Shown: in pieces, positions 441 to 21,966 of the stretch | Numbering within the stretch: position 1 is the stretch's first letter | Layout: each line of letters opens with the position of its first letter | Translations under genes and position numbers: made by a program | Assembly: GCA_051748045.1 (NCBI GenBank) | Contig: JBNJGY010000034.1 | Location: 1 to 22,984 of the forward strand | Direction: 5' to 3' | Length of the DNA: 22,984 bases | From: Thermotogota bacterium | GTDB taxonomy: Bacteria > Thermotogota > Thermotogae > Petrotogales > Petrotogaceae | The notes under the pieces: generated by a model | Databases searched by the model: none | What the model saw: the letters and a program-made list of their open reading frames with translations, nothing else | Told to the model about the DNA's origin: nothing

Positions 441-536
441 TTTCATTTATTCTCTTTGTTAATATATTTTTCTATTTTTTAATTTTTTCAGAATAATATA
501 TAATATTGTTATAAAAAATTGAAAAGGAGAATGAGA

Positions 537-1427
537 ATGAATATAAGAAATTTGAAGGTTTCTGAATTAGAAAAGTTAGATGATTTTTTTGATGTAAAAG
601 AATCTTTTATAAACTATATTGAAAAAATGATGGAAGATAAGGTAATAAAACCGGAATGGTGTTTTGTTTCTGAAGAAGATAACATTCTCAAATCAATAAT
701 TATCTATGCTGTTTTTGATAGCGAACTTGAAATTTTATATTTCAATATTAATGACTTTAACAGTAAATATTCTTTAGATATTCTGCCAAAAAGTTTGAAT
801 AGAATGAAGGAGGAAGGGTTTGATACAGTTGGAATTCATATTTATTCTGATAAAAAGAATTATATAAAATATATAGATACATTAAAAAATAATTATTTTA
901 ATATTATACAAGAAAAGAAGAGTTTTATTTTAGAATGTAATCAAAAAGATAAGTATTTTAATAGATTGCATTATAAAACTTTGAAAGAGGTAGGAAAAGA
1001 TTTTTTTATTGAGAAAATAAAGGATGTAACTGTTAATACTTTGGATCAAGAAGATCTAGATTCAATTAGAATGTATGGAGATGAAAAGGCAGCTATCAAA
1101 TATTTTAATGAGTTGAAAATTATTGATTATAATCCCGAGATGTGGAAATTAGGCTATGATAAGGATGAAATAGTAGGACTGGTTATACCACAAGTGTTTG
1201 ATAAATCTACAGGAGCTATAAATTATATTGGAGTTATTCCAGAAAAAAGAGGAAATGCCTTTATAAATGATCTTTTGAAGGAAGGCATAAATTCTTTGAA
1301 TAGAAAAAAGATAAATAAAATAATTGCTGACATAGATATTAATAATTATCCATTAGAGAGAGCTTTAGTAAAAGAAAATTTTAAGTTAGACAGTAAAATG
1401 TTTGTTTTAAAATTAAGTCTAATATGA
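537..1427 (+). CDS. GNAT-family N-acetyltransferase (about 300 aa, tandem-GNAT size)
   Basis: C-terminal GNAT motif A (INYIGVIPEKRGNAFINDLL) and ADIDINNYP. AAGGAG at 524-529 favours ATG 537 over the TTG at 519. Confidence 0.85.
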   Translation: MNIRNLKVSELEKLDDFFDVKESFINYIEKMMEDKVIKPEWCFVSEEDNILKSIIIYAVFDSELEILYFNINDFNSKYSLDILPKSLNRMKEEGFDTVGIHIYSDKKNYIKYIDTLKNNYFNIIQEKKSFILECNQKDKYFNRLHYKTLKEVGKDFFIEKIKDVTVNTLDQEDLDSIRMYGDEKAAIKYFNELKIIDYNPEMWKLGYDKDEIVGLVIPQVFDKSTGAINYIGVIPEKRGNAFINDLLKEGINSLNRKKINKIIADIDINNYPLERALVKENFKLDSKMFVLKLSLI

Positions 1428-9359: not shown

Positions 9360-9386
9360 AGCAGATTAAATCTGCTTCATTTTTTT
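9354..9386. terminator. Bidirectional terminator between convergent genes
   Basis: AAATGAAGCAGAT-taa-ATCTGCTTCATTT followed by a T run. Confidence 0.85.
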
Positions 9387-11517
9387 AATTTAATATAAAG
9401 GGTAGAGATCTGGCATTTCTCATGAATATATCAAAGGAATTTTTCTTTCGTTCTAATAGTAATGGTATTGTTTTCCACGTATCCCAAGTTATTTTTTCTG
9501 TTTCAATAATTTCCTCTCCGAAAACTGTAGTTATATTTATTCCATCAGTCTCTCTATAACTCATTTTGTTTTCCGCCTCATATCCATATAATATATATCT
9601 CTTGCTTGGATCAGAAAACTGTAAAATAACCCATGGAATTCTTATTTTTAAAGATTTAGTATCATAAACAACTGCGTCTAAACTAGTTTCAATTTCAGAA
9701 AACTCTCTAATTTTTAGTTTTCCTATTTTTTGATACTGTTCAGGAAGACTGTTACCATACCCATCTGTGTAAGCTTGCCTATTTTGCCAAGTTACAAGAT
9801 TCCAAACTCCATCATCGCTATTTTGTGGATGCCAATTTGTAACACTTGTTGATTCATAAGATTTTTCCGATTTTATAATGGGATTATCAAACCAAATACC
9901 TTTTAGATCATATTCATTAGTCACATAAAAATTCGCAGTTGCCTCTTCTTCAATATATTTTTTTATTTCTAATAAAAACTCTGATCCCATTTCTATTTCT
10001 TTTCCATTTAATAGTTTTCTCTCACCAATATTTTTATTATATGTATTAAAAGCAATATATATTTTATCAGTGTAATTATTTTCTAATACTATATTTAAAT
10101 AAAAAAACTGATGATCAATAAACGTCTCAATTTTTTTTACATATTTTTTTGAATCATTTTTTATAGATAAAAGTGTTAATTCTTTTTTAGGAAGCATATT
10201 CTTAGTTTCAAATGTTAACAGCCCATAATTTTGTTCTCCGTTTGTCATATCATGCCAAAGTCTATAATCCTCTCTAGGGAATGTCAAAGGTTCTGTTATC
10301 CAAAAATTTTTCCACCATTCGTCAAATAATGAAAAATAAGCACCGCCAGCTAACCCAAGATCATAAAATCCATTTATCATATCAACTGAATATTCTCCTT
10401 GTTCTACTTCTGTATGTCCTCCATGATTCATTCCTGAATCAGCATATTTTGCATTTCCCCAGCTTGAAGGAACTCCGTATTCGGCTATGAAAAGAGGAAT
10501 ATTATCATATTTAGCTCTTAACTCTTTTAGATATTCGAAATAAGGGTTTTCTCCTTCAACATCGTATTTCTCATCTTCGTCTATGAATTCAGGGTAATAA
10601 GGATAGGCATGATAACTGGCAAAATAACCAGTGCTTGATTTTCTTTTTTGTATTTTATACAACTGTAGTTCTGCCACATCTTCTTCTGTGACTTCTGAAG
10701 GGTGGTTTAAGGGGTCTAGTGTTGGCCAACTAGAAAAACTAATTGGTCTTTCATTGTTGTAATTATCTTTTTCATATTCAGCTAAATAATCTATTTTTTC
10801 TACAATCCAAGCTGTAGATTTTGGTACATCTGCTATAGAAAAATATATACCTTCATAGGATTCAAGTTCAACGTCTTCTTCAGCATTCATAGCTCCATCT
10901 GTTGCTTCTAGTTCTGCAGGTTCTACTTCGCGTCCAATAATCCATCCCATAACCCAAGGAGATATATTATACTCATATTTCCCCCATGCCTTTCCATATC
11001 TCTGATCTATTTCTATATCTCCATGTATAGCCTGAACATTTTCTTGTATTTCTAGTTCAAACTGTTTATTATGTTCTTCAAGTGATACTTCTCCTTTATA
11101 ATTCAACCAAATACCGTGCAGAACATACATGGGGTTTTCAGGATTTTTTAGATTATATTCTTGTAGAGATTGATAAAAATGTGGTCTATGCAGAGTATAA
11201 ATTCTTATGACGTTTATTCCATTATCTCCTAATATTTTAAACCATCTATCATAATAATCTTTTGGTATATTTGTCTCACCTGGTTGTTTACCTGGTAACG
11301 CAACACCAAGATTAACGGCATTAATAAAAATGTCTTGAGTCGTATCATTTGCTTTGTTGTATTTTTGTAAATGATCGTTTCCGGTTGTAAACAAATAACC
11401 ATCATATTCAAACTGTGATTGGTCTATTAAATTATCTTGCACTGAATCTTCTTTTAAAATACATCCAGAAAAAATAAAAATAATTGATAAAAGTATTAAA
11501 ATATAAATTTTTTTCAT
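9385..11517 (-). CDS. Lipoprotein with GH-A-clan (GH2-like) TIM-barrel glycoside hydrolase domain
   Basis: Lipobox IFSGC (Cys19), GINVIRIYT, candidate acid/base IGREVEP, SYHAYPYYP, candidate nucleophile IAEYG, FDEWWK. Confidence 0.75.
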   Translation of the reverse strand: MKKIYILILLSIIFIFSGCILKEDSVQDNLIDQSQFEYDGYLFTTGNDHLQKYNKANDTTQDIFINAVNLGVALPGKQPGETNIPKDYYDRWFKILGDNGINVIRIYTLHRPHFYQSLQEYNLKNPENPMYVLHGIWLNYKGEVSLEEHNKQFELEIQENVQAIHGDIEIDQRYGKAWGKYEYNISPWVMGWIIGREVEPAELEATDGAMNAEEDVELESYEGIYFSIADVPKSTAWIVEKIDYLAEYEKDNYNNERPISFSSWPTLDPLNHPSEVTEEDVAELQLYKIQKRKSSTGYFASYHAYPYYPEFIDEDEKYDVEGENPYFEYLKELRAKYDNIPLFIAEYGVPSSWGNAKYADSGMNHGGHTEVEQGEYSVDMINGFYDLGLAGGAYFSLFDEWWKNFWITEPLTFPREDYRLWHDMTNGEQNYGLLTFETKNMLPKKELTLLSIKNDSKKYVKKIETFIDHQFFYLNIVLENNYTDKIYIAFNTYNKNIGERKLLNGKEIEMGSEFLLEIKKYIEEEATANFYVTNEYDLKGIWFDNPIIKSEKSYESTSVTNWHPQNSDDGVWNLVTWQNRQAYTDGYGNSLPEQYQKIGKLKIREFSEIETSLDAVVYDTKSLKIRIPWVILQFSDPSKRYILYGYEAENKMSYRETDGINITTVFGEEIIETEKITWDTWKTIPLLLERKKNSFDIFMRNARSLPFILN

Positions 11518-13102: not shown

Positions 13103-13130
13103 TTGATTTTGTTTTATTATGAGTTATAAT
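13103..13130 (+). promoter_or_regulatory. Candidate promoter for the ubiD operon
   Basis: TTGATT (13103-13108), 16 bp, TATAAT (13125-13130). A second TATAAT lies at 13178-13183. Confidence 0.45.
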
Positions 13131-13148
13131 TTAATAGAATATATATTT

Positions 13149-13172
13149 GCGGACAATATTTTGTCCGCTTTT
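13149..13172 (+). terminator. GC-rich inverted repeat: dsrE terminator, attenuator or operator
   Basis: GCGGACAA-tatt-TTGTCCGC followed by TTTT. Confidence 0.55.
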
Positions 13173-13218: not shown

Positions 13219-14658
13219 ATGGCTTTTAAAGATTTACAAGATTTCATTAATTTTTTAGAAGAAAAAAATGAACTAATAAGAGTTAAAACTGAAGTTGATA
13301 GCAATTTAGAAATCACAGAAATCGTTGATAGAGTTTCAAAAGATTATGGACCTGCTTTGTTATTTGAAAATGTTAAAAATTCAAATTATCCTGTTCTAAT
13401 AAATGCTTTTGGTTCTTACGAAAGAATGGCAATGTCTTTAGGTGTTGAGAATCTTGATAATATAGCTGAAGATATTCTTGAATTAATGGACGTTTCAAGT
13501 TATGTTAGCCTTATGAACAAGATAAAATCTATCCCTAAGCTTACTAGAATGCTAAAAGTTTTCCCTAAAAAAGTGAATAATGGAGCATGTCAAGAAGTCA
13601 TTGAGGAAGCTGATTTAGACTCATTGCCAGTATTAAAATGCTGGCCTGAAGACGGGGGACCTTTTATGACTTTACCTCTTGTTATTACTAAAGATCCAGA
13701 AACAGGTATGCAGAACATGGGCATGTATAGACTTCAAGTTTATGATAAGAAAACTACTGGAATGCACTGGCATCTTCACAAAGATGGGAAATCTATTTAT
13801 GAAAAATATAAAAAAATGGGTAAAAGAATGCCTGTTAATGTAGCTTTTGGTTGTGACCCTGCTGTTACCTATGCTGCAACAGCTCCATTACCAAAAGAAA
13901 TAGATGAAATTCTTTTTGCGGGTTTTTTGAGAAAGAAACCTGTTGAATTGGTTAAGGCTACTACTAATGACATTTATGTACCTGCTAACGCTGAATTTGT
14001 ATTAGAGGGATATGTTGATATTGATGAATTAAAAAAAGAGGGTCCATTTGGAGACCATACAGGATATTATTCTCTAGCAGATCTTTACCCTGTTTTTCAT
14101 GTTGAAAAAATCACAAGAAAGAAAAACCCTGTTTATCCAGCAACAGTAGTAGGTAAACCACCAATGGAAGACTGTTATATGGGAAAAGCTACTGAAAGAA
14201 TTTTTCTTCCTTTGATGAAAATGTATTTACCAGAAATAATCGATATGAATTTTCCTCTTGAAGGAGTTTTTCATAACTGCGTGATAGTTTCTATTGATAA
14301 AAAATATCCAGGTCATGCTAAAAAAGTAATGCACGGTTTATGGGGTATGGGTCAGATGATGTACACAAAAATGATCATTGTTGTAGATAAAGATGTTGAC
14401 CCACAGGACATTTCAACAGTAGCCTGGAAAGTCTTTAACAACATTGATGCTAAAAGAGATTTAGAAATAGTTAACGGACCTTTGGATGCTTTAGATCATG
14501 CTTCTAATCAACCACATTATGGAAATAAACTTGGTATTGATGCGACTAAAAAATGGAGCAGTGAAGGACATACTAGAGAATGGCCTAATGATATTGTTAT
14601 GTCAGATGAAGTCAAGAAAAAGGTAGATGATAAATGGAATGAATATGGTATTGACTAA
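13219..14658 (+). CDS. ubiD: UbiD-family prFMN-dependent decarboxylase (menaquinone biosynthesis decarboxylase / MqnL-like)
   Basis: GPALLFEN, CWPEDGGPF, NMGMYR, GMHWH, EGPFGDHTGYY, VGKPPMED, LDALDH, GIDATKK. Confidence 0.95.
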   Translation: MAFKDLQDFINFLEEKNELIRVKTEVDSNLEITEIVDRVSKDYGPALLFENVKNSNYPVLINAFGSYERMAMSLGVENLDNIAEDILELMDVSSYVSLMNKIKSIPKLTRMLKVFPKKVNNGACQEVIEEADLDSLPVLKCWPEDGGPFMTLPLVITKDPETGMQNMGMYRLQVYDKKTTGMHWHLHKDGKSIYEKYKKMGKRMPVNVAFGCDPAVTYAATAPLPKEIDEILFAGFLRKKPVELVKATTNDIYVPANAEFVLEGYVDIDELKKEGPFGDHTGYYSLADLYPVFHVEKITRKKNPVYPATVVGKPPMEDCYMGKATERIFLPLMKMYLPEIIDMNFPLEGVFHNCVIVSIDKKYPGHAKKVMHGLWGMGQMMYTKMIIVVDKDVDPQDISTVAWKVFNNIDAKRDLEIVNGPLDALDHASNQPHYGNKLGIDATKKWSSEGHTREWPNDIVMSDEVKKKVDDKWNEYGID

Positions 14659-15502
14659 AATAAGAAAATATGGTGAATTAGTAATGTTTTCACATATATT
14701 GTTTTCATTACCCTTTTCAATGGTGGCTATGTTTTGGGCTGCTCAAGGGATACCAGATTTCGTGACATTTATTTGGATCTTTTTAGCATTACTGGGAGCA
14801 AGAAATGGTGCTAACGCTCTAAACAGAATTGTTGATGCAAAAATAGATCAAAAAAACCCCAGAACATCTAAGAGACATATTCCAAAAGGTGAAGTTAAAA
14901 AAATAGAGGCTATTTTTTTAACTATAGTATTTTTCATGATGTATTTTATCGCTGCTTATAGCTTAAATAGATTAACTTTTATCTTATCACCTATTCCTAT
15001 TGTTATATTTTTTATTTATTCTTATTCAAAAAGATTTACTTGGTTTTGCCACATTATTTTGGGGATCGCTTGTGGAGGAGCTCCTGTTGGTGCTTGGCTT
15101 GCTGTTACAGGAAGTTTTGCTTGGCCTCCTATTTTGTTAGGAGCTGTTGTGACTTTTTGGGTAGCTGGGTTTGATGTAATTTATGCTACACAAGATTTCG
15201 ATTTTGATAAAAAAAACAACCTTAAATCTATACCTGTATTTTTTGGTATAAAAGGCTCTTTAATAATTTCAGCGATTCTACACATTCTATCTTTATGTTT
15301 ACTTTTCAGTCTATATTTTATAATGAATATGGGGATGACATATCTAATTGGTTTGATCTCCATCGCTGTTCTTCTTTTAGTGGAACATAAGATGGTTTCA
15401 CCAGATAATTTAAAGTCGATGAAAATAGCTTCTTATAGTATAAATCAAATTGTTAGTGTTTTATTTTTTATTTTTACATCTTTAGATATTTTTTTATTTT
15501 AA
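14645..15502 (+). CDS. ubiA: UbiA-family aromatic-acid polyprenyltransferase (MqnP-like)
   Basis: HILFSLPF, Asp-rich NRIVDAKIDQKNPRT..RHIP, YSYSKRF, GFDVIYATQDFDFD...SIP, multiple TM helices. Start overlaps the end of ubiD. Confidence 0.92.
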   Translation: MVLTKIRKYGELVMFSHILFSLPFSMVAMFWAAQGIPDFVTFIWIFLALLGARNGANALNRIVDAKIDQKNPRTSKRHIPKGEVKKIEAIFLTIVFFMMYFIAAYSLNRLTFILSPIPIVIFFIYSYSKRFTWFCHIILGIACGGAPVGAWLAVTGSFAWPPILLGAVVTFWVAGFDVIYATQDFDFDKKNNLKSIPVFFGIKGSLIISAILHILSLCLLFSLYFIMNMGMTYLIGLISIAVLLLVEHKMVSPDNLKSMKIASYSINQIVSVLFFIFTSLDIFLF

Positions 15503-15515
15503 AGGAGGAACTATA

Positions 15516-16088
15516 GTGAAAAAAGTAGCTGTTGGTATTACTGGAGCTAGTGGTAGTATTTTTGCCAAAAAAACTATTGAGAAATTAGTCGAGTTGGGGC
15601 ATCATGTTCATCTAGTAATAACAGACCAAGGTTTTGGAGTTATTGAACATGAACTAAACACTTCTATACCTGAATTTATAAGCCTTTTTGAGAACAACAT
15701 TGAAATTCACAACAACGATGATATGTTTTCTCCTATTGCAAGTGGCTCTTATAATTTAGATTCTTTAATTATTGTACCCTGTTCCATGGGCACTGTGGCA
15801 AAAATTACAAATGGTATTTCAGATAATCTCCTTTGTAGAGCTGCGGATGTTTGTATTAAAGAAAAAATAAATCTCACATTAGTCCCAAGAGAAACACCTT
15901 TAAATTCAATACATTTAGATAATTTGCTAAAATTGAGCAAAATGAATGTCAATATTGTTCCACCATTACCTTCTTTCTACGATCATCCTCAAAGTATTGA
16001 TGATATTATAGATAATTCAGTGGGAAGAATTTTAAAAAGCGCTGGAATTAATAATGATTTTTATAAAATATGGAATGGAGGAGATTAA
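15516..16088 (+). CDS. ubiX: Flavin prenyltransferase UbiX
   Basis: GITGASG, IASGS, PCSMGT, RAADV, RETP, PSFY. AAGGAGG SD. Confidence 0.96.
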   Translation: MKKVAVGITGASGSIFAKKTIEKLVELGHHVHLVITDQGFGVIEHELNTSIPEFISLFENNIEIHNNDDMFSPIASGSYNLDSLIIVPCSMGTVAKITNGISDNLLCRAADVCIKEKINLTLVPRETPLNSIHLDNLLKLSKMNVNIVPPLPSFYDHPQSIDDIIDNSVGRILKSAGINNDFYKIWNGGD

Positions 16089-16089
16089 T

Positions 16090-17013
16090 TTGAAAAAAGT
16101 ACTACTATTTTTGACTTTGATTTTTATAATGTTGACTTTTGTTGCTTGCGAACCAAAAGAGGTAGATGAATTAACTATAGGTATATTACCAGATGTAGAT
16201 TCTATACCTTTTATTATTGCAAAAGAAAAAGGGTATTTCGAGGAAGAAAACGTGAATGTTAATCTAGAATATTTTAAAAGCCCAGTAAATAGAGATAGTG
16301 CTTTACAAAGCGGAAATCTAGATGCTGCTATTTCTGATGTCTTGGCAGCTGCTTTTGCCAAAGATAATGATTTTGAAATGAATATCACTTCTATGACAAA
16401 TGGTAGTTATAAGCTGATAGTCAACAAGGATGCTGGAATAGATAGCATTCAAGGATTAAAAGATAAAGAAGTTGCTATGTCTAAAAATACTATTATAGAA
16501 TATGCAACAGATATGATGTTAAAAGAGGCTGGAATGAGTTTTGATTATATTGAAAAAGCTATTATACCTCAAATACCAACAAGGCTTGAAATGTTGCAAA
16601 GTGGAAAAGTTACAGCTGCTACTTTACCAGAGCCTTTGGCTACAGTTGCTATAAGTAATGGAGCTGTTTTTATAAATAGCTCAGATAATTTGGGTATAAA
16701 CCCTGGAATATTATTGTTCACTAAAGACGCATTAGAAGAAAAAGAAGAATCAATTAAAAGAATGTATAAAGCTTATAACAAAGCTATTGAATATTTGCAA
16801 CAAAATGATAAAGCTGATTATGTTGATATTTTAATTAGTGAAGCAGGGTTTCCACCTGTTATTGAATCTACTTTGATATTACCTAAATATAACAAAGCTG
16901 AAGCTGTTTCAAAAAATGATTTTAATAATGTAATAGATTGGTTAGTTGAAAAAAATTTAATTGATAAAGAGTATGATTATTCAGATATAGTAAACAACAA
17001 ATTTGTAGACTGA
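16090..17013 (+). CDS. ABC transporter substrate-binding lipoprotein, SsuA/NMT1/THI5 (NitT/TauT) type
   Basis: Lipobox FVAC, PFIIAKEKGYFEE, ALQSGNLDA, LPEPLA. TTG start 1 nt after the ubiX stop, behind GGAGG. Confidence 0.9.
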   Translation: MKKVLLFLTLIFIMLTFVACEPKEVDELTIGILPDVDSIPFIIAKEKGYFEEENVNVNLEYFKSPVNRDSALQSGNLDAAISDVLAAAFAKDNDFEMNITSMTNGSYKLIVNKDAGIDSIQGLKDKEVAMSKNTIIEYATDMMLKEAGMSFDYIEKAIIPQIPTRLEMLQSGKVTAATLPEPLATVAISNGAVFINSSDNLGINPGILLFTKDALEEKEESIKRMYKAYNKAIEYLQQNDKADYVDILISEAGFPPVIESTLILPKYNKAEAVSKNDFNNVIDWLVEKNLIDKEYDYSDIVNNKFVD

Positions 17014-17015
17014 TT

Positions 17016-17747
17016 ATGGTTTTAATTGACTCTCTAAGTTTTAGTTATACAGATAAAAATGTATTAAATAATATTAATCTAAAACTATATGATGGAGATA
17101 TTATCTCAATTATTGGGCCCTCTGGGTCTGGTAAAAGTACTTTTTTAAAAATATTATCAGGTATAATTAATGATTATAATGGTTCTATATCAATAGATAA
17201 TGAAAACATAAATCCAAAAATACACAATATTGGTTTTATTCCACAACATTATGGTTTATTACCTTGGAAAAATGTTTTTGATAACATAAAAATTTCTTTA
17301 AAAATTAAAAATATTGAAAATGAAAAAATTATATTTAACTTAAGCAAAAGGTTGGGCATAGATGATATTTTAAACAAATATCCTAATCAAATCAGTGGCG
17401 GGCAAAAACAAAGGGTTGCAATTGCAAGAACCTTTTCAATTAATCCATCTTTATTGTTAATGGATGAACCTTTTTCAGCTTTAGATGCTATAAATAGAGA
17501 AGAATTACAAGATAATTTTTTAAACGCTTGGAAAAATGAAGAGTTTACTACAATTTTAATTACTCATAGTGTTCAAGAAGCTCTATTTTTAACAAAAACT
17601 ATCTATGTTTTAGACAAAAATGGGTCTTTTTCAAAAATATTCCAAAATCCATTTTTTGGTATTAGGCTGGAAGAACTTAATAAAGAATATTTTGATTTGT
17701 TGAATAATATCAAAAAAAGTATTAAAGGAGATTATAAGAATGAATAG
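17016..17747 (+). CDS. ABC transporter ATP-binding protein, NitT/TauT family
   Basis: Walker A GPSGSGKST, ISGGQKQR, LLMDEPFSALD, ITH, LLPWKNV. Confidence 0.95.
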   Translation: MVLIDSLSFSYTDKNVLNNINLKLYDGDIISIIGPSGSGKSTFLKILSGIINDYNGSISIDNENINPKIHNIGFIPQHYGLLPWKNVFDNIKISLKIKNIENEKIIFNLSKRLGIDDILNKYPNQISGGQKQRVAIARTFSINPSLLLMDEPFSALDAINREELQDNFLNAWKNEEFTTILITHSVQEALFLTKTIYVLDKNGSFSKIFQNPFFGIRLEELNKEYFDLLNNIKKSIKGDYKNE

Positions 17748-18486
17748 ATTAAAAAACAATCTTCTAAAAATACTTTATGCGATACTTTTTCTTTTTGCTT
17801 TGTGGTATTTGATTAGTTTATTGGTTAATAGACCTATCATTCCTTATCCGCATATTGTTTTCTTTGATTTATTAAAGGGAAACAACTCACTTTTTTTTAA
17901 TTTAAACTACAGTATTTTTAGAATTTTTTTCGGTATATTTTTCGCAATTTTAATTGGCTATCCAATAGGGTTGTTTATGGGTTTTTATAAGAAAATCGAT
18001 AAAATTTTTAGCCCAATTATCTATTTGACTTATCCCATTCCAAAAATAGCACTTTTACCAATAGTCATGCTATTATTCGGTCTAGGAGATCTTCCAAAGA
18101 TTATAATGATTGTTTTGATAATTATTTTTCAAATTATTCTAGCAACCAGAGATGGTGTGAAAGAAATAGATTCAGAAGTTTATCACACCTTTTACTCACT
18201 CGGTGCAAACAACGTCCAAATCTTTTCAAATATAATTATTCCAGCAACTTTACCAAAAGTTTTGACCTCTTTGAGGATTGCAGTTGGTACTTCGATTTCA
18301 GTTTTGTTTTTCACAGAAACTTTTGGCACAGAACATGGTATGGGGTTTTATATTGTAGATGCTTGGATGAGATTTAATTATGTTGAAATGTATGGCGGAA
18401 TTATGATTCTAAGTTTATTAGGACTTTTTATATTTTTCTTTTTAGATATATTACAATGGGTTTTATGCCCTTGGAATAGACAGTAA
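17740..18486 (+). CDS. ABC transporter permease, NitT/TauT family
   Basis: TM helices, YPIPKIALLP, SLGA...IIIPATLP EAA-like loop, GMGFYI. Confidence 0.93.
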   Translation: MNRLKNNLLKILYAILFLFALWYLISLLVNRPIIPYPHIVFFDLLKGNNSLFFNLNYSIFRIFFGIFFAILIGYPIGLFMGFYKKIDKIFSPIIYLTYPIPKIALLPIVMLLFGLGDLPKIIMIVLIIIFQIILATRDGVKEIDSEVYHTFYSLGANNVQIFSNIIIPATLPKVLTSLRIAVGTSISVLFFTETFGTEHGMGFYIVDAWMRFNYVEMYGGIMILSLLGLFIFFFLDILQWVLCPWNRQ

Positions 18487-18517
18487 AAAACCGACACTTA
18501 AAAGTGTCGGTTTTATT
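18485..18517. terminator. Bidirectional terminator
   Basis: AAAAAACCGACACTT-aa-AAGTGTCGGTTTTATTT between the convergent permease and mgsA genes. Confidence 0.9.
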
Positions 18518-18910
18518 TTATTCTGAAAGTTTCTTTTCTATTTCTATTGCCAATGCCTCTGCAGTTGCTAGGTTAGTAGCAAGAGGTATATTGTGAACAT
18601 CACAAACTCTCAAAAAAGCTGATACATCAGGCTCATGTGGCTGAGCTGTTAATGGATCTCTCAAAAAGATAACGAAATCAATTTGACCTGTCACCAACAA
18701 AGATCCTATTTGAAGGTCTCCACCTATTGGACCAGATTCATAAGTTTTTATATTAAAACCTACTTTTTCTCTTAAGAGTTTACCAGTTGATTTAGTAGCA
18801 TGTAAACTACATTTGTTAAACACTTCTTTCCATTCTTTAGCAAACATTACTAAATCAAGTTTTTTCTTATCATGTGCTATTAAAGCAACATCTATATTTT
18901 TGTCTTCCAT
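18518..18910 (-). CDS. mgsA: Methylglyoxal synthase
   Basis: ALIAHDKKK, ATKSTG, SGPIGGDLQIG, DPLTAQPHEPD, PLATNLATA. Confidence 0.96.
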   Translation of the reverse strand: MEDKNIDVALIAHDKKKLDLVMFAKEWKEVFNKCSLHATKSTGKLLREKVGFNIKTYESGPIGGDLQIGSLLVTGQIDFVIFLRDPLTAQPHEPDVSAFLRVCDVHNIPLATNLATAEALAIEIEKKLSE

Positions 18911-18914
18911 TAAA

Positions 18915-19919
18915 TTACATCTCTTTGTTTGCAACAGCTTTTATCATTTTTACTGTGTTTAATACATCTTCATAAGAAACCATTTCGTGTGGTGAATGAA
19001 TATATCTAGTTGCAATTGAAATCGTACATACAGGAATTCCTGATTTACTTCTTTGGTATCCCATTGCATTTGTTCCTCCGCCAAATAATACTTCAAATTG
19101 GTAAGGAATTTTTTCTTCAACGGCTGAATTTTTAATAAATTCAACTACGTTTCTATCTGAAATAGTTGCATTATCTTTTATTTTTATACAAGGGCCATCT
19201 CCCAATTTCATGCTCATTCTTTTTATGCCTTTTGGAGTATCTAATGCCATTGTTACATCTATTGCTATTGCCATATCAACTTCATAATCGTATGATGCAA
19301 CTGAAGCACCAACAATTCCAACTTCTTCTTGGACTGTGAAAGCAAAAATTACGTTGTTTTTTGGTTTATCCATTTCTTTTATAGCTTGGATCATTGTAGC
19401 ACAAGCAACTCTATCATCCATTGCTTTTGATACAATATGGTCTCCTAAGTCATGAAATCCTGTAGCGTAAGTTCCGAAAGTACCTATTGGAGCTTTTTCT
19501 TCAGCTTCTTCTCTTGTTTTAGCCCCGATATCAACAAATAAAACATCTAAATTTAAATGAGTTGAATTTTCTCTAAGGTCTTTTACAGTTTCTCCCTCAA
19601 TTCCTACTACTCCAACATTTCCGTTGAATTGAAATTGTGTTCCAATTAGATTTAAAGGATTTTGACCGCCAACAGCGTCTACTTTTAAAAACCCATTATC
19701 TGTGATATGAGTTACTACAAGTCCAATTTCATCCATATGCCCATCAAATAATACTGTTTTATCTGAGTCACCTTTTTTAATAGCTATTAAATTTCCCAAT
19801 TTGTCTACTTTTATTTCGTCTACATGATCTTTTATTTCTGATGTTATAAATTCTCTTATTTCATCTTCTCTACCACTTGGTGAGTATATTTCAGTTATTT
19901 TTTTTATTAATTCTTTCAT
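18915..19919 (-). CDS. M42-family (TET-like) metallo-aminopeptidase
   Basis: PSGRE, HMDEIG, KAMDDR, QEEVG, IDVT, GGTN, RYIHSP. Confidence 0.95.
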   Translation of the reverse strand: MKELIKKITEIYSPSGREDEIREFITSEIKDHVDEIKVDKLGNLIAIKKGDSDKTVLFDGHMDEIGLVVTHITDNGFLKVDAVGGQNPLNLIGTQFQFNGNVGVVGIEGETVKDLRENSTHLNLDVLFVDIGAKTREEAEEKAPIGTFGTYATGFHDLGDHIVSKAMDDRVACATMIQAIKEMDKPKNNVIFAFTVQEEVGIVGASVASYDYEVDMAIAIDVTMALDTPKGIKRMSMKLGDGPCIKIKDNATISDRNVVEFIKNSAVEEKIPYQFEVLFGGGTNAMGYQRSKSGIPVCTISIATRYIHSPHEMVSYEDVLNTVKMIKAVANKEM

Positions 19920-20947
19920 TCTGCAATCATCCTCCCATCAATTAACAATTTCTCAGTTATTTTATATACACTGTCATAATCTTTTAAATTGATTATTGTA
20001 TTTGGTGAATGTAAATATCTACATGGAACAGAAATAACTCCAGCTGGGATACCCCCTAAGGTTCTTGCAAGTCTTGCTGCATCCGTTCCACCTGCTGTTC
20101 TCATTTTGTACTGATATTTAATATTCATTTCTTTAGCTGTTGAAACTATATTTTCAAATATTTTTCTTTCAAGTACAACTCCTGAATGCATAAAAGTTAA
20201 AACAGGGCCATCTCCAAGATGTGTAGCCCATTTTTCTGGCTCGTTTTCAGGATTATCTCCAGCAGTAGTGCCTTCTAAGATTAAAGCAGCGTCTGGATCA
20301 ATATATTCAGCTGCAACACCACTACCTCTCAGACCAGTTTCTTCTTGTACTACGAAAGCAAAATAAGTATCGTATTCAGGTTTTGTGTTATTTTCTTTGA
20401 AACTTTCAAGAACATTCATCATTACTGTACAACCTGCTCTGTCATCAAAAGCTTTTGATAAAGCATAGTCTCCATTTTCATGATATTCAACATCAAAAGT
20501 AACCATGTCTCCAAGGCTTACCTTTTCTTTTGCATCTTCATCTTTTTTGAAACCACATTCGATTTTTAAAGAATCGTATTTTGCTACTGAAGAAGTTTCT
20601 TTTTCAAGATGTATCGGTTTTGAATTTACTACTGCTGGTATCTCGTTGTTGATAAGTAGTCTTTGAGATTTTACAACTCTTGGATCTACTCCGCCAACCA
20701 TTGAGATTCCGAGTTTTCCGTCTTTATGAATTTTTGTTACCAAAAATCCAACTTCATCCATATGAGCAGCTACCATTATTCTTTTTGAGCTGTTTTTACC
20801 TTTTTTTAAAACTATCATGTTTCCCATTACATCTTCATATATATCATCGTATAGTCCATCTATTTTTTCTTTTATAAATTCTTTTACTTTTTCTTCATGA
20901 CCTGATACTCCCATTAATTCAGTCATTTCTTTTAAATATTTTCTCAT
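19916..20947 (-). CDS. M42-family metallo-aminopeptidase
   Basis: VSGHE, AHMDEVG, KAFDDRAG, QEETGLRG, GGTDA, RYLHSP. ATGA overlap with the neighbouring gene. Confidence 0.95.
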   Translation of the reverse strand: MRKYLKEMTELMGVSGHEEKVKEFIKEKIDGLYDDIYEDVMGNMIVLKKGKNSSKRIMVAAHMDEVGFLVTKIHKDGKLGISMVGGVDPRVVKSQRLLINNEIPAVVNSKPIHLEKETSSVAKYDSLKIECGFKKDEDAKEKVSLGDMVTFDVEYHENGDYALSKAFDDRAGCTVMMNVLESFKENNTKPEYDTYFAFVVQEETGLRGSGVAAEYIDPDAALILEGTTAGDNPENEPEKWATHLGDGPVLTFMHSGVVLERKIFENIVSTAKEMNIKYQYKMRTAGGTDAARLARTLGGIPAGVISVPCRYLHSPNTIINLKDYDSVYKITEKLLIDGRMIAE

Positions 20948-21966
20948 TTCTTTTCACCTTCTTCATATGCGTATAAAGCAAGAAGTTTTGCTGTTAAATC
21001 TATATCTTTTTCATTTACTACTTCAACAGGTGAATGCATGTTGTAGATTGGTATTGATAGAACTCCTGTTTTAACTCCTGTTTTTACCAACTGAACAACA
21101 TCCGTTTCTGTTCCTGTTCTCATAGGTAAAACTTCCGTTTGATGATCTATATTTTCATTTTTCACTATGTCTTTCAATTTTTTATATACTTCTTTATTTA
21201 TAGCTGCTCCTACTCCTATAGCAGGACCCTTTCCAATTTTCATTGTTTCCATATTAGAAGGTAGATCTTCAGCAAAAGTAACATCAACTATTATTGCGTT
21301 ATCTGGATAAATATCGTAAGCCATACCTTTAGCTCCAACAAGACCTACTTCTTCTCCCTTGTTGAAAGAAAGATATAATGTACCGTTGAATTTGAATTTT
21401 TTTAAGTATTCTAAAGCTTTGATAATAGAAACTACGCCAGCTCTATTGTCTATTGCTTTTCCAGATATATTTTTATTTTTTAAATCTTTTGATTTTGATT
21501 CAACTACTCCAATATCACCAACATTTATATCATCTGTTCCTCCGGATATTGAAAAATCTACAAATAATTCATCAAAAGATGGAGATTGTCCTCTTTTGTC
21601 TTTATCTTGCAAATGAGGAGCAAGCATACCTATTACTCCCAGTTTGTTACCTTTCTCTGTTTTAAAAACTACTCTTTTTGCTATCAATGTTCTTGGATCT
21701 ACTCCACCAACCATTTCAACTCTTGCAAAGTCTTTGTCTACTATTTTAGATATTGCTATACCGATTTCATCTATATGTGCAAAAAAGGCAATTTTTTTAT
21801 CCCCATTTCCATATTTTGCAACTAGACTTCCTGTTCCTCTTTTCGATATTTCTATATCTGAATCCATATCTTTTAATGTTTCTTCAACTATAGAGTATGT
21901 GTTATGCTCCCAAGAACTAACGCCAAAACTGTCTGATAGTTTTTTTAATATCTCAGAAATATCCAT
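20944..21966 (-). CDS. M42-family metallo-aminopeptidase
   Basis: AHIDEIG, GGVDP, KAIDNRAG, EEVG, VDVT, NMHSP. Confidence 0.93.
   Translation of the reverse strand: MDISEILKKLSDSFGVSSWEHNTYSIVEETLKDMDSDIEISKRGTGSLVAKYGNGDKKIAFFAHIDEIGIAISKIVDKDFARVEMVGGVDPRTLIAKRVVFKTEKGNKLGVIGMLAPHLQDKDKRGQSPSFDELFVDFSISGGTDDINVGDIGVVESKSKDLKNKNISGKAIDNRAGVVSIIKALEYLKKFKFNGTLYLSFNKGEEVGLVGAKGMAYDIYPDNAIIVDVTFAEDLPSNMETMKIGKGPAIGVGAAINKEVYKKLKDIVKNENIDHQTEVLPMRTGTETDVVQLVKTGVKTGVLSIPIYNMHSPVEVVNEKDIDLTAKLLALYAYEEGEKK

Follow-up and report, generated by a model that had tools for sequence, protein, structure and literature searches.

The window analyzed here, a stretch of 22,984 nucleotides, is contig JBNJGY010000034.1 of a Thermotogota bacterium of the family Petrotogaceae. 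At positions 13219–18486 of this DNA, which has a G+C content of about 27%, six co-directional open reading frames (ORFs) on the plus strand join members of the UbiD, UbiA and UbiX families to an ATP-binding cassette (ABC) importer of the NitT/TauT type. As developed below, the module is real, conserved and mobile: it joins late enzymes of the futalosine route to menaquinone with a pump, both of known kinds and in a new combination. From genomic context and co-occurrence, the ABC system is a candidate importer of 1,4-dihydroxy-6-naphthoate (hereafter 6-naphthoate) or a related acid. The genes and their boundaries are:

13149–13168, plus strand: terminator-like hairpin (8 pairs, 5 of them G-C, with a T run behind); ends the DsrE-like gene upstream and sets the 5′ boundary of the operon
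13219–14658, plus strand: UbiD, decarboxylase dependent on prenylated FMN (prFMN), MqnL type, 479 amino acids (Pfam UbiD_N, UbiD, UbiD_C; TIGR03701)
14627–15502, plus strand: UbiA-family membrane aromatic prenyltransferase, MqnP-like, 291 amino acids (PF01040, TIGR01475)
15516–16088, plus strand: UbiX-family flavin prenyltransferase, GTG start after an AGGAGG site (TIGR00421, NF004685)
16090–17013, plus strand: lipoprotein substrate-binding protein, NMT1/SsuA-like fold, 307 amino acids (Pfam NMT1, NMT1_2)
17016–17747, plus strand: ABC transporter ATP-binding subunit, 243 amino acids (PF00005)
17740–18486, plus strand: ABC transporter permease, NitT/TauT type, 248 amino acids (PF00528, BPD_transp_1)
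18487–18514, strand unassigned: strong hairpin (12 pairs and a T run); ends the operon and faces the convergent mgsA

A sequence-only reading of the window had described six same-strand genes with overlaps or gaps of no more than 13 bp and no internal terminator before 18485. Both statements hold. With the binding-protein gene started at TTG 16090, the junctions measure −32, +13, +1, +2 and −8 bp, and the sole internal terminator-like match (17110–17134) is weak, lying inside the ATPase coding sequence and having a poor T tail. Terminator-like matches in the region number four, versus 2.1 ± 1.4 in shuffled sequences. The TTG start is more likely than ATG 16054 because a GGAGG ribosome site precedes it, because its product begins MKKVLLFLTLIFIMLTFVAC, i.e. 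a signal peptide and lipoprotein cysteine, and because homologues align from this position (alignment A1). Judged by their spacing, the six genes are probably co-transcribed. In metatranscriptome run X4 (0.06 of sampled words), short near-identical contigs were found at 14622–14785 and 16465–16727, for which DNA carry-over is possible; no X4 contig spans the junction between UbiX and the binding protein, and parts of the operon unmatched in this run carry no meaning. The best promoter-like site (TTGATT, 16 nt, TATAAT; 13103–13130) sits upstream of the hairpin at 13149–13168, and this hairpin could therefore be a leader attenuator of the operon, beyond terminating the DsrE-like gene.

UbiA-type enzymes prenylate aromatic acids, UbiX makes prFMN, and prFMN-loaded UbiD removes a carboxyl group remote from the site of prenylation. 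The UbiD of the window, which is the only UbiD match in its own genome, passes the MqnL equivalog TIGR03701 (menaquinone biosynthesis decarboxylase) with 668.8 bits against a cut-off of 495.9, and lies below the Escherichia coli-type UbiD model NF008175 (435.8 vs 788). The futalosine-positive Pelosinus genome G157 provides a control: one of its contigs bears MqnC (488.5, above the cut-off of 428), another two genes like MqnC/E, and MqnA/D, and its MqnL and MqnP are adjacent. Its MqnL scores 639.3 on TIGR03701 and is 61–62% identical to the window's UbiD, which agrees with the proposed resemblance of the trio to the late futalosine enzymes. UbiX exceeds the cut-offs of TIGR00421 (205 > 108.9) and NF004685 (197.7 > 188).

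The comparison with MqnL and MqnP, suggested by the sequence-only reading, thus succeeds for the decarboxylase and is less clear for the prenyltransferase. The latter is a UbiA by PF01040 (196.3 bits > 34.2) and TIGR01475 (284.3 > 180.8), and its translation contains two Asp-rich stretches, NRIVDAKID and QDFDFD, which we take to be the two Asp-rich motifs of the UbiA superfamily. Its best specific models are PRK12886 (317.6 < 387) and MqnP_DT (290.9 < 430). It misses all three MqnP exception models, NF041584, NF041585 and NF041586 (290.9/430, 237.2/420 and 211.9/375). This failure is uninformative, because the Pelosinus MqnP misses the same models with nearly the same scores (281.9/430, 283/420 and 206.5/375). 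However, the two proteins are only 38% identical, and in the tree the Pelosinus MqnP forms a long branch apart from every pump-linked UbiA, so that the aromatic substrate of the window's UbiA could differ from that of MqnP. One may therefore ask whether the pump brings in a different head group, 4-hydroxybenzoate or gentisate for instance, so that a prenylated phenol or benzoquinol would be formed in place of demethylmenaquinone; the 270 bits of this UbiA on PRK12888, labelled 4-hydroxybenzoate octaprenyltransferase, would fit as well. We regard this as unlikely, given the MqnL assignment of the UbiD, its failure on the E. coli-type model, the similar failure of the Pelosinus MqnP on the MqnP models, the lack in this genome of a UbiE/MenG-type methylase above cut-off, and a repeated neighbourhood with NADH dehydrogenase (see below) that points to a redox-active product. 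In the ubiquinone pathway, 4-hydroxybenzoate that is prenylated and decarboxylated only yields a phenol, which is not redox-active. The canonical ubiquinone enzymes UbiA, UbiD and UbiX do share with the present trio the prenylation of an aromatic acid followed by prFMN-dependent decarboxylation, but the window's UbiA falls below the proteobacterial model TIGR01474 (121 vs 275), as its UbiD does below its counterpart, and neither UbiC nor a methylase above cut-off was found in the genome.

The sequence-only reading had noted that the window contains no ring-synthesis genes, and the absence extends to the whole assembly, which is 99.65% complete in 158 contigs. PF02621, the family of MqnA and MqnD, has no match in this genome, and the MqnC and MqnE models reach at best 41.8 and 39.5 bits against cut-offs of 428 and 435. 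MenD and MenB have no match either, a UbiC-type chorismate lyase was not found, and the best UbiE/MenG methylase match in the genome scores 78 bits vs a cut-off of 158. Thus, an MqnL-type UbiD occurs here in a genome without MqnA, MqnC, MqnD and MqnE. The search for a polyprenyl diphosphate synthase found two, and the genome carries three UbiA-family genes. The third of these resembles geranylgeranylglyceryl-phosphate transferases (PRK12884, 275 > 269) and adjoins a methyltransferase resembling the selenoprotein MduS (283.8 < 380), the pair lying at contig C80:2752–4454.

Among 151 genomes of the phylum, the UbiD query matches three, the present one included, from three genera of one family, and the cassette is in neither of two congeners. 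This rarity agrees with the view that such a system would be unusual in the host lineage. The two other genomes, G079 and G071, keep all six genes in synteny and in the same order; identity to the window's proteins is 87% and 80%, respectively, for UbiD and 63% and 60% for the binding protein. When the other 19 ORFs of the window were used as queries, none matched at these two loci except for a single weak, partial match (32% across 189 residues). Since the six-gene order is kept in two genera with unlike flanks, the arrangement, as far as synteny can tell, is not a chance adjacency. The three UbiDs cluster together (support 81/99), as do the three UbiAs (84/98), both moderately supported and among Bacillota sequences, and the closest relatives outside the phylum are from Clostridia at 69–79% identity. 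A DmkA-type gene occurs in 5 of the 151 genomes, within this family only, including two that carry the cassette (the remaining cassette genome is only 62% complete). In three relatives that possess DmkA without the cassette (G066, G069 and G070), the binding protein finds no homologue at E ≤ 1e-5; therefore, the pump follows UbiD/UbiA/UbiX, not DmkA.

The linkage reaches well beyond the phylum. A pattern scan with the binding protein, taking one genome per species, returned eight loci, in six of which UbiD-UbiA(-UbiX) lies directly upstream of the binding protein. These six are from metagenome-assembled genomes labelled Clostridiaceae, Clostridiales, Christensenellaceae (two) and Bacillota (two); the two without this linkage come from Pelosinus (53% identity) and Porphyromonas (31%). 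Of 399 scored Clostridia-class genomes, drawn evenly, 21 (about 5% of the species sampled) carry a UbiD that is at least 60% identical to the window's; in the phylum, its presence is sporadic. The binding protein is present in all 21 (20 re-searched, plus G151): in 15 it shares a contig with UbiD at no more than 5 kb, in three it lies 10–70 kb away and in three on another contig. Conversely, a binding-protein search of the same 399 (E ≤ 1e-40) gave 29 genomes, i.e. the 21 and eight weaker ones with 34–38% identity and no close UbiD. The resulting table (both genes, 21; UbiD alone, 0; binding protein alone, 8; neither, 370) has a Fisher p of 9e-29, which ignores relatedness and overstates the significance.

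The known routes of ring synthesis are lacking in these genomes too. MenB above cut-off was found in none of the 28 other UbiD-bearing genomes; its model otherwise gave four matches of 141–162 bits, including one in the Pelosinus control, which are at the level of crotonases. None of the 28 has a convincing MqnA/D, for which Pelosinus G157 reaches 222 bits on PF02621; weak matches in six of them comprise 22.8 bits in G079 (below cut-off), 38.7 in G153 and 31–47 over partial models in four Clostridia. The linkage that the sequence-only reading proposed to check is thus conserved both as a cassette and as a genome-level co-occurrence, in genomes without known ring synthesis.

Metagenomes gave a more mixed picture. 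A scan with alignment A1 found at least 428 relatives, of which the best 80 loci (relatives at 45–61% identity) form 33 clusters at 85% identity. UbiA, UbiX or UbiD is adjacent in seven of the 33, four are too short to judge, and 22 show none of the three in 2 kb or more of upstream sequence, a result to which we return. In one of the seven, L086 (5559–11379), the order is UbiA-UbiX-binding protein-ATPase-permease, followed by a divergent 610-residue UbiD that is 31% identical to the window's; from its gene order, this appears to be an independent arrangement of the cassette parts. The unlinked pump loci come mostly from gut assemblies. Stand-alone pumps often follow genes for NYN, DUF3783 and a coiled-coil membrane protein of about 285 residues without Pfam family (L061:1578–3746, L060:2194–4250, L105:6091–6951); considered as a clue to the ligand, these neighbours were uninformative.

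What does the pump carry? Its NMT1/SsuA-fold lipoprotein (Pfam NMT1, 67 bits; NMT1_2, 62 bits), ABC ATPase (PF00005, 111.6 bits) and BPD_transp_1 permease (PF00528, 96.8 bits), all in one operon, have the architecture of a NitT/TauT-type importer. An AlphaFold (AF2) model of the binding protein, with a mean predicted local distance difference test score (pLDDT) of 83.5, was matched by Foldseek to TauA, SsuA, ThiY, a thiamin binder, Thi5 and PqqT at template modelling (TM) scores of 0.62–0.77 and 13–21% identity, TauA and SsuA at E about 1e-18. Searching solved structures by sequence returned only Thi5 and SsuA (E ≥ 4e-4), and the ESM Atlas only generic binding-protein names. Such model-based matches fix the fold of the protein, not its ligand. 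By analogy, PqqT suggests that an NMT1/SsuA-type fold can hold a polycyclic quinone carboxylate, and nothing more. A plasmid search with the binding protein gave one 28.5% match, on a replicon of Prevotella, where no quinone genes are close by.

The simplest thought would be a fortuitous adjacency, the pump being an ordinary importer of sulfonate, taurine or nitrate. Indeed, the best named matches of its subunits are the SsuA, TauB, TauC and NrtB families, and an FMN reductase of the SsuE-like family lies downstream of the Pelosinus pump. All of these matches, however, are far below the family cut-offs: the binding protein scores 103.4 < 163.5 for SsuA (TIGR01728) and 19.8 < 304.25 for TauA (TIGR01729), the permease 151.9 < 295 for SaoP and 112.3 < 342 for TauC, and the best NCBIfam models of the ATPase, for taurine, tungstate and nitrate, are likewise missed. 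The pump shares the three-component architecture with TauABC, SsuABC and ThiXYZ, and the binding-protein fold with these and with PqqT (TM 0.64–0.77), whereas the low identity and the missed equivalog cut-offs set it apart from all four. Considering also the co-occurrence table and that the cassette moves as a unit, we find an ordinary importer extremely improbable. Beside the Pelosinus pump and another relative, genes for an ABM monooxygenase, an NADPH-dependent FMN reductase and nitroreductases lie directly downstream (L015:12659–14281 and L042:9658–10254), which is weakly compatible with a redox-active cargo.

A cofactor would be a subtler cargo: the pump might supply a flavin or other cofactor precursor for UbiX/UbiD or for flavin-based electron-transfer proteins. 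Some of its structural relatives bind thiamin, a pyrimidine precursor and PQQ (pyrroloquinoline quinone); UbiX is directly upstream of the binding protein in L110 and L114, where the contigs begin inside or just before UbiX and UbiD/UbiA are unseen; and the gene for an ApbE flavin transferase follows that of the binding protein in L018. Yet the binding protein keeps its place beside UbiD-UbiA where the cluster has no UbiX (L016–L019, L038), and no riboswitch, for FMN or otherwise, was found by Rfam directly upstream of the binding-protein gene in 19 sequences (18 related loci and the window); cobalamin and tetrahydrofolate riboswitches in L048 and L055 are more than 3 kb off. Furthermore, the co-occurrence is with UbiD, while every cell needs flavins. 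We therefore consider a cofactor cargo very unlikely.

If the cassette makes a quinone, something should use it. The search for quinone-dependent oxidoreductases uncovered a cluster on contig C17 (16652–21668, minus strand), outside the view of the sequence-only reading, in which four genes follow in a row:

Contig C17, minus strand: PplA-like protein with two FMN-binding domains (285.7 < 325)
Contig C17, minus strand: MenA/DmkA-type prenyltransferase of 1,4-dihydroxy-2-naphthoate (DHNA) (NF004752, 357 > 289)
Contig C17, minus strand: HepT-like long-chain prenyl synthase, DmkB (235 < 456)
Contig C17, minus strand: type II NADH dehydrogenase (Ndh2), 621 amino acids

As read from its gene content, the genome would thus hold a consumer of membrane quinone yet no known route to the ring, and the product of the cassette would therefore have a purpose. 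The association recurs elsewhere. Of the other 28 genomes with UbiD, 24 have a homologue of the long Ndh2 (E ≤ 1e-40), and in seven of these (G153, G154, G155, G280, G393, G465 and G496) its gene is no more than 5 kb from UbiD or UbiA. At L018, genes for a permease and an Ndh2-DoxX/DoxD fusion, both on the minus strand, lie next to a run of UbiD (666 bits on TIGR03701), UbiA, binding protein, ApbE, NusG_II, Hpre_diP_synt_I and HepT-like synthase, and at L016, L017 and L019 a prenyl synthase and/or Ndh2 adjoins cassette genes. A preprint on NDH-2 (10.1101/2025.10.14.682086) has, in the portion available, nothing on UbiD, UbiA or pump neighbours. Across these neighbourhoods, NADH:quinone oxidoreductase is the partner that recurs. 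PplA-like genes adjoin Ndh2 or UbiD in G307, G352 and G530. In G071 (C6:44019–44642), the Ndh2 homologue matches residues 1–208 only (75% identity) and has an in-frame TAA; in this 62%-complete genome, it may be broken or reflect a contig problem.

Taken together, these data led us to the following model. The extracellular lipoprotein would bind an aromatic carboxylate that other microbes release in soluble form, with 6-naphthoate, the last soluble intermediate of the futalosine pathway, as the likeliest candidate, and the permease and ATPase would carry it into the cell. There, the UbiA/MqnP-like enzyme would add a long polyprenyl chain made by the long-chain prenyl diphosphate synthase of contig C17, and UbiD/MqnL, with prFMN from UbiX, would then strip the carboxyl group. 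With no MenG/UbiE methylase found, the product would be a demethylmenaquinol-type lipid. The quinone would take electrons from the membrane-anchored Ndh2 and deliver them to extracellular electron transfer based on flavoproteins, or to a short chain of similar kind, and the fermenter would thereby re-oxidize its NADH. The ligand, the order of prenylation before decarboxylation, the product and the physiological role are all inferred. The preference for 6-naphthoate comes from the MqnL assignment and from chemistry: for prenylation and decarboxylation alone to give a redox-active product, the substrate should already possess a para-diol, as 6-naphthoate does. Salvage of an imported head group, as first proposed from the window alone, gains support from the absent ring synthesis, the conserved pump linkage, the MqnL score and the rarity of the cassette, and we consider it probable, on these genomic grounds, that the cell imports an aromatic acid, most likely 6-naphthoate, and salvages it to make a membrane quinone. 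The wider claim is held more tentatively, as a possibility rather than an expectation: that the pump is the first importer dedicated to a soluble quinone head group, forming with MqnP, MqnL and MqnM a mobile salvage cassette through which nominal fermenters exploit a neighbour's futalosine intermediate in an Ndh2-based chain.

Several observations weigh against the salvage model, in addition to the divergence of the UbiA described above. First, and chiefly, stands the majority of metagenomic clusters (22/33) in which the pump has no cassette enzyme upstream. Second, the futalosine-positive Pelosinus G157 owns the 53%-identical pump, with no UbiD/UbiA in its 10-kb flanks, and the pump is therefore not confined to auxotrophs. 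Third, the genome possesses chorismate synthase, so that a ring pathway of another kind from chorismate is conceivable. These three facts are also what favours a different explanation, in which the ring is made in the cell by an undescribed chorismate pathway and the pump serves the re-uptake of leaked intermediate or an unrelated nutrient. However, at the loci read, neither the cassette nor its flanks contain candidate genes for ring synthesis, and all 29 UbiD-bearing genomes, the present one included, are without both known routes; an internal pathway thus has, in our view, a very low probability. Fourth, with the binding protein at most 21% identical to any solved relative, the assignment of the ligand rests on context. 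Fifth, the genome also has the MenA-type DmkA, and the cassette may be redundant. Sixth, as regards the electron sink, cytochrome bd is present in none of nine cassette genomes tested and was dropped as a candidate quinone user. Finally, PplA-like matches are found in 13 of the 29 UbiD-bearing genomes and none is above cut-off; extracellular electron transfer is therefore not a universal partner of the cassette.

Some parts of the salvage model have precedents. The FLEET locus, whose original description is said to concern Listeria, combines a long Ndh2, a long-chain prenyl synthase, an ApbE-type transferase and FMN-binding lipoproteins beside quinone genes, as do, in part or whole, L017, L018 and contig C17. 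Unlike in FLEET, UbiD-UbiA and the binding protein take the place of DmkA in L018, and the PplA-like protein of C17 stays below its cut-off. The components of the C17 type (Ndh2, DmkA, DmkB and PplA) are those named for the FLEET pathway in the part of PMC10746273 available. In auxotrophs such as Lactiplantibacillus plantarum and Prevotella, DHNA is salvaged by MenA/DmkA, according to the available portions of PMC10746273 and PMC5738691. There, as proposed here, a cell that cannot make the ring takes up a soluble naphthoate from outside and converts it to a membrane quinone, used with Ndh2 and PplA; the present genome also has a cluster of DmkA, DmkB, Ndh2 and PplA-like protein. The DHNA route, however, as those portions present it, involves one enzyme and no known transporter, in contrast to the two-step prenylation and decarboxylation coupled here to a putative dedicated importer.

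The trio itself was predicted as mqnL-mqnP-mqnM (SCO4490-4492 type) by Ravcheev and Thiele (2016; PMC4746308), in the available text only alongside the Mqn ring pathway. The three families and their order (decarboxylase, prenyltransferase, flavin prenyltransferase) are the same here; what differs is that this genome and 28 others lack the ring pathway and have an ABC importer joined to these enzymes. A passage of that paper says that importers for soluble precursors "remain to be annotated"; likewise, passages of PMC5738691 (2017) and PMC10746273 (2023) state, respectively, that the uptake route for the menaquinone precursor is unidentified and that the quinone incorporation pathway "remains to be identified". 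A 2025 vitamin review (PMC12702654) names no importer of menaquinone precursors in its available part, and within our limited collection of literature we met no relevant report joining UbiD/UbiA or futalosine salvage with an ABC importer. Against this background, the missing importer of quinone precursors now has, in this pump, a concrete candidate that can be tested. Were the salvage model true, quinone cross-feeding would pass from an observation in growth assays to a genetic system, auxotrophs and the precursor they need would become predictable from genomes, and some members of supposedly pure-fermenter lineages (3 of 151 genomes in this phylum) would run quinone-dependent electron transfer.

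Elsewhere in the window, two ORFs have no Pfam match at E ≤ 1e-4, one of 710 residues (9385–11517, minus strand) and one of 302 residues (519–1427, plus strand). Beyond the operon, the minus strand at 18518–21966 encodes methylglyoxal synthase and then three tandem ORFs of about 335–343 residues, the first of which is an M42 aminopeptidase.

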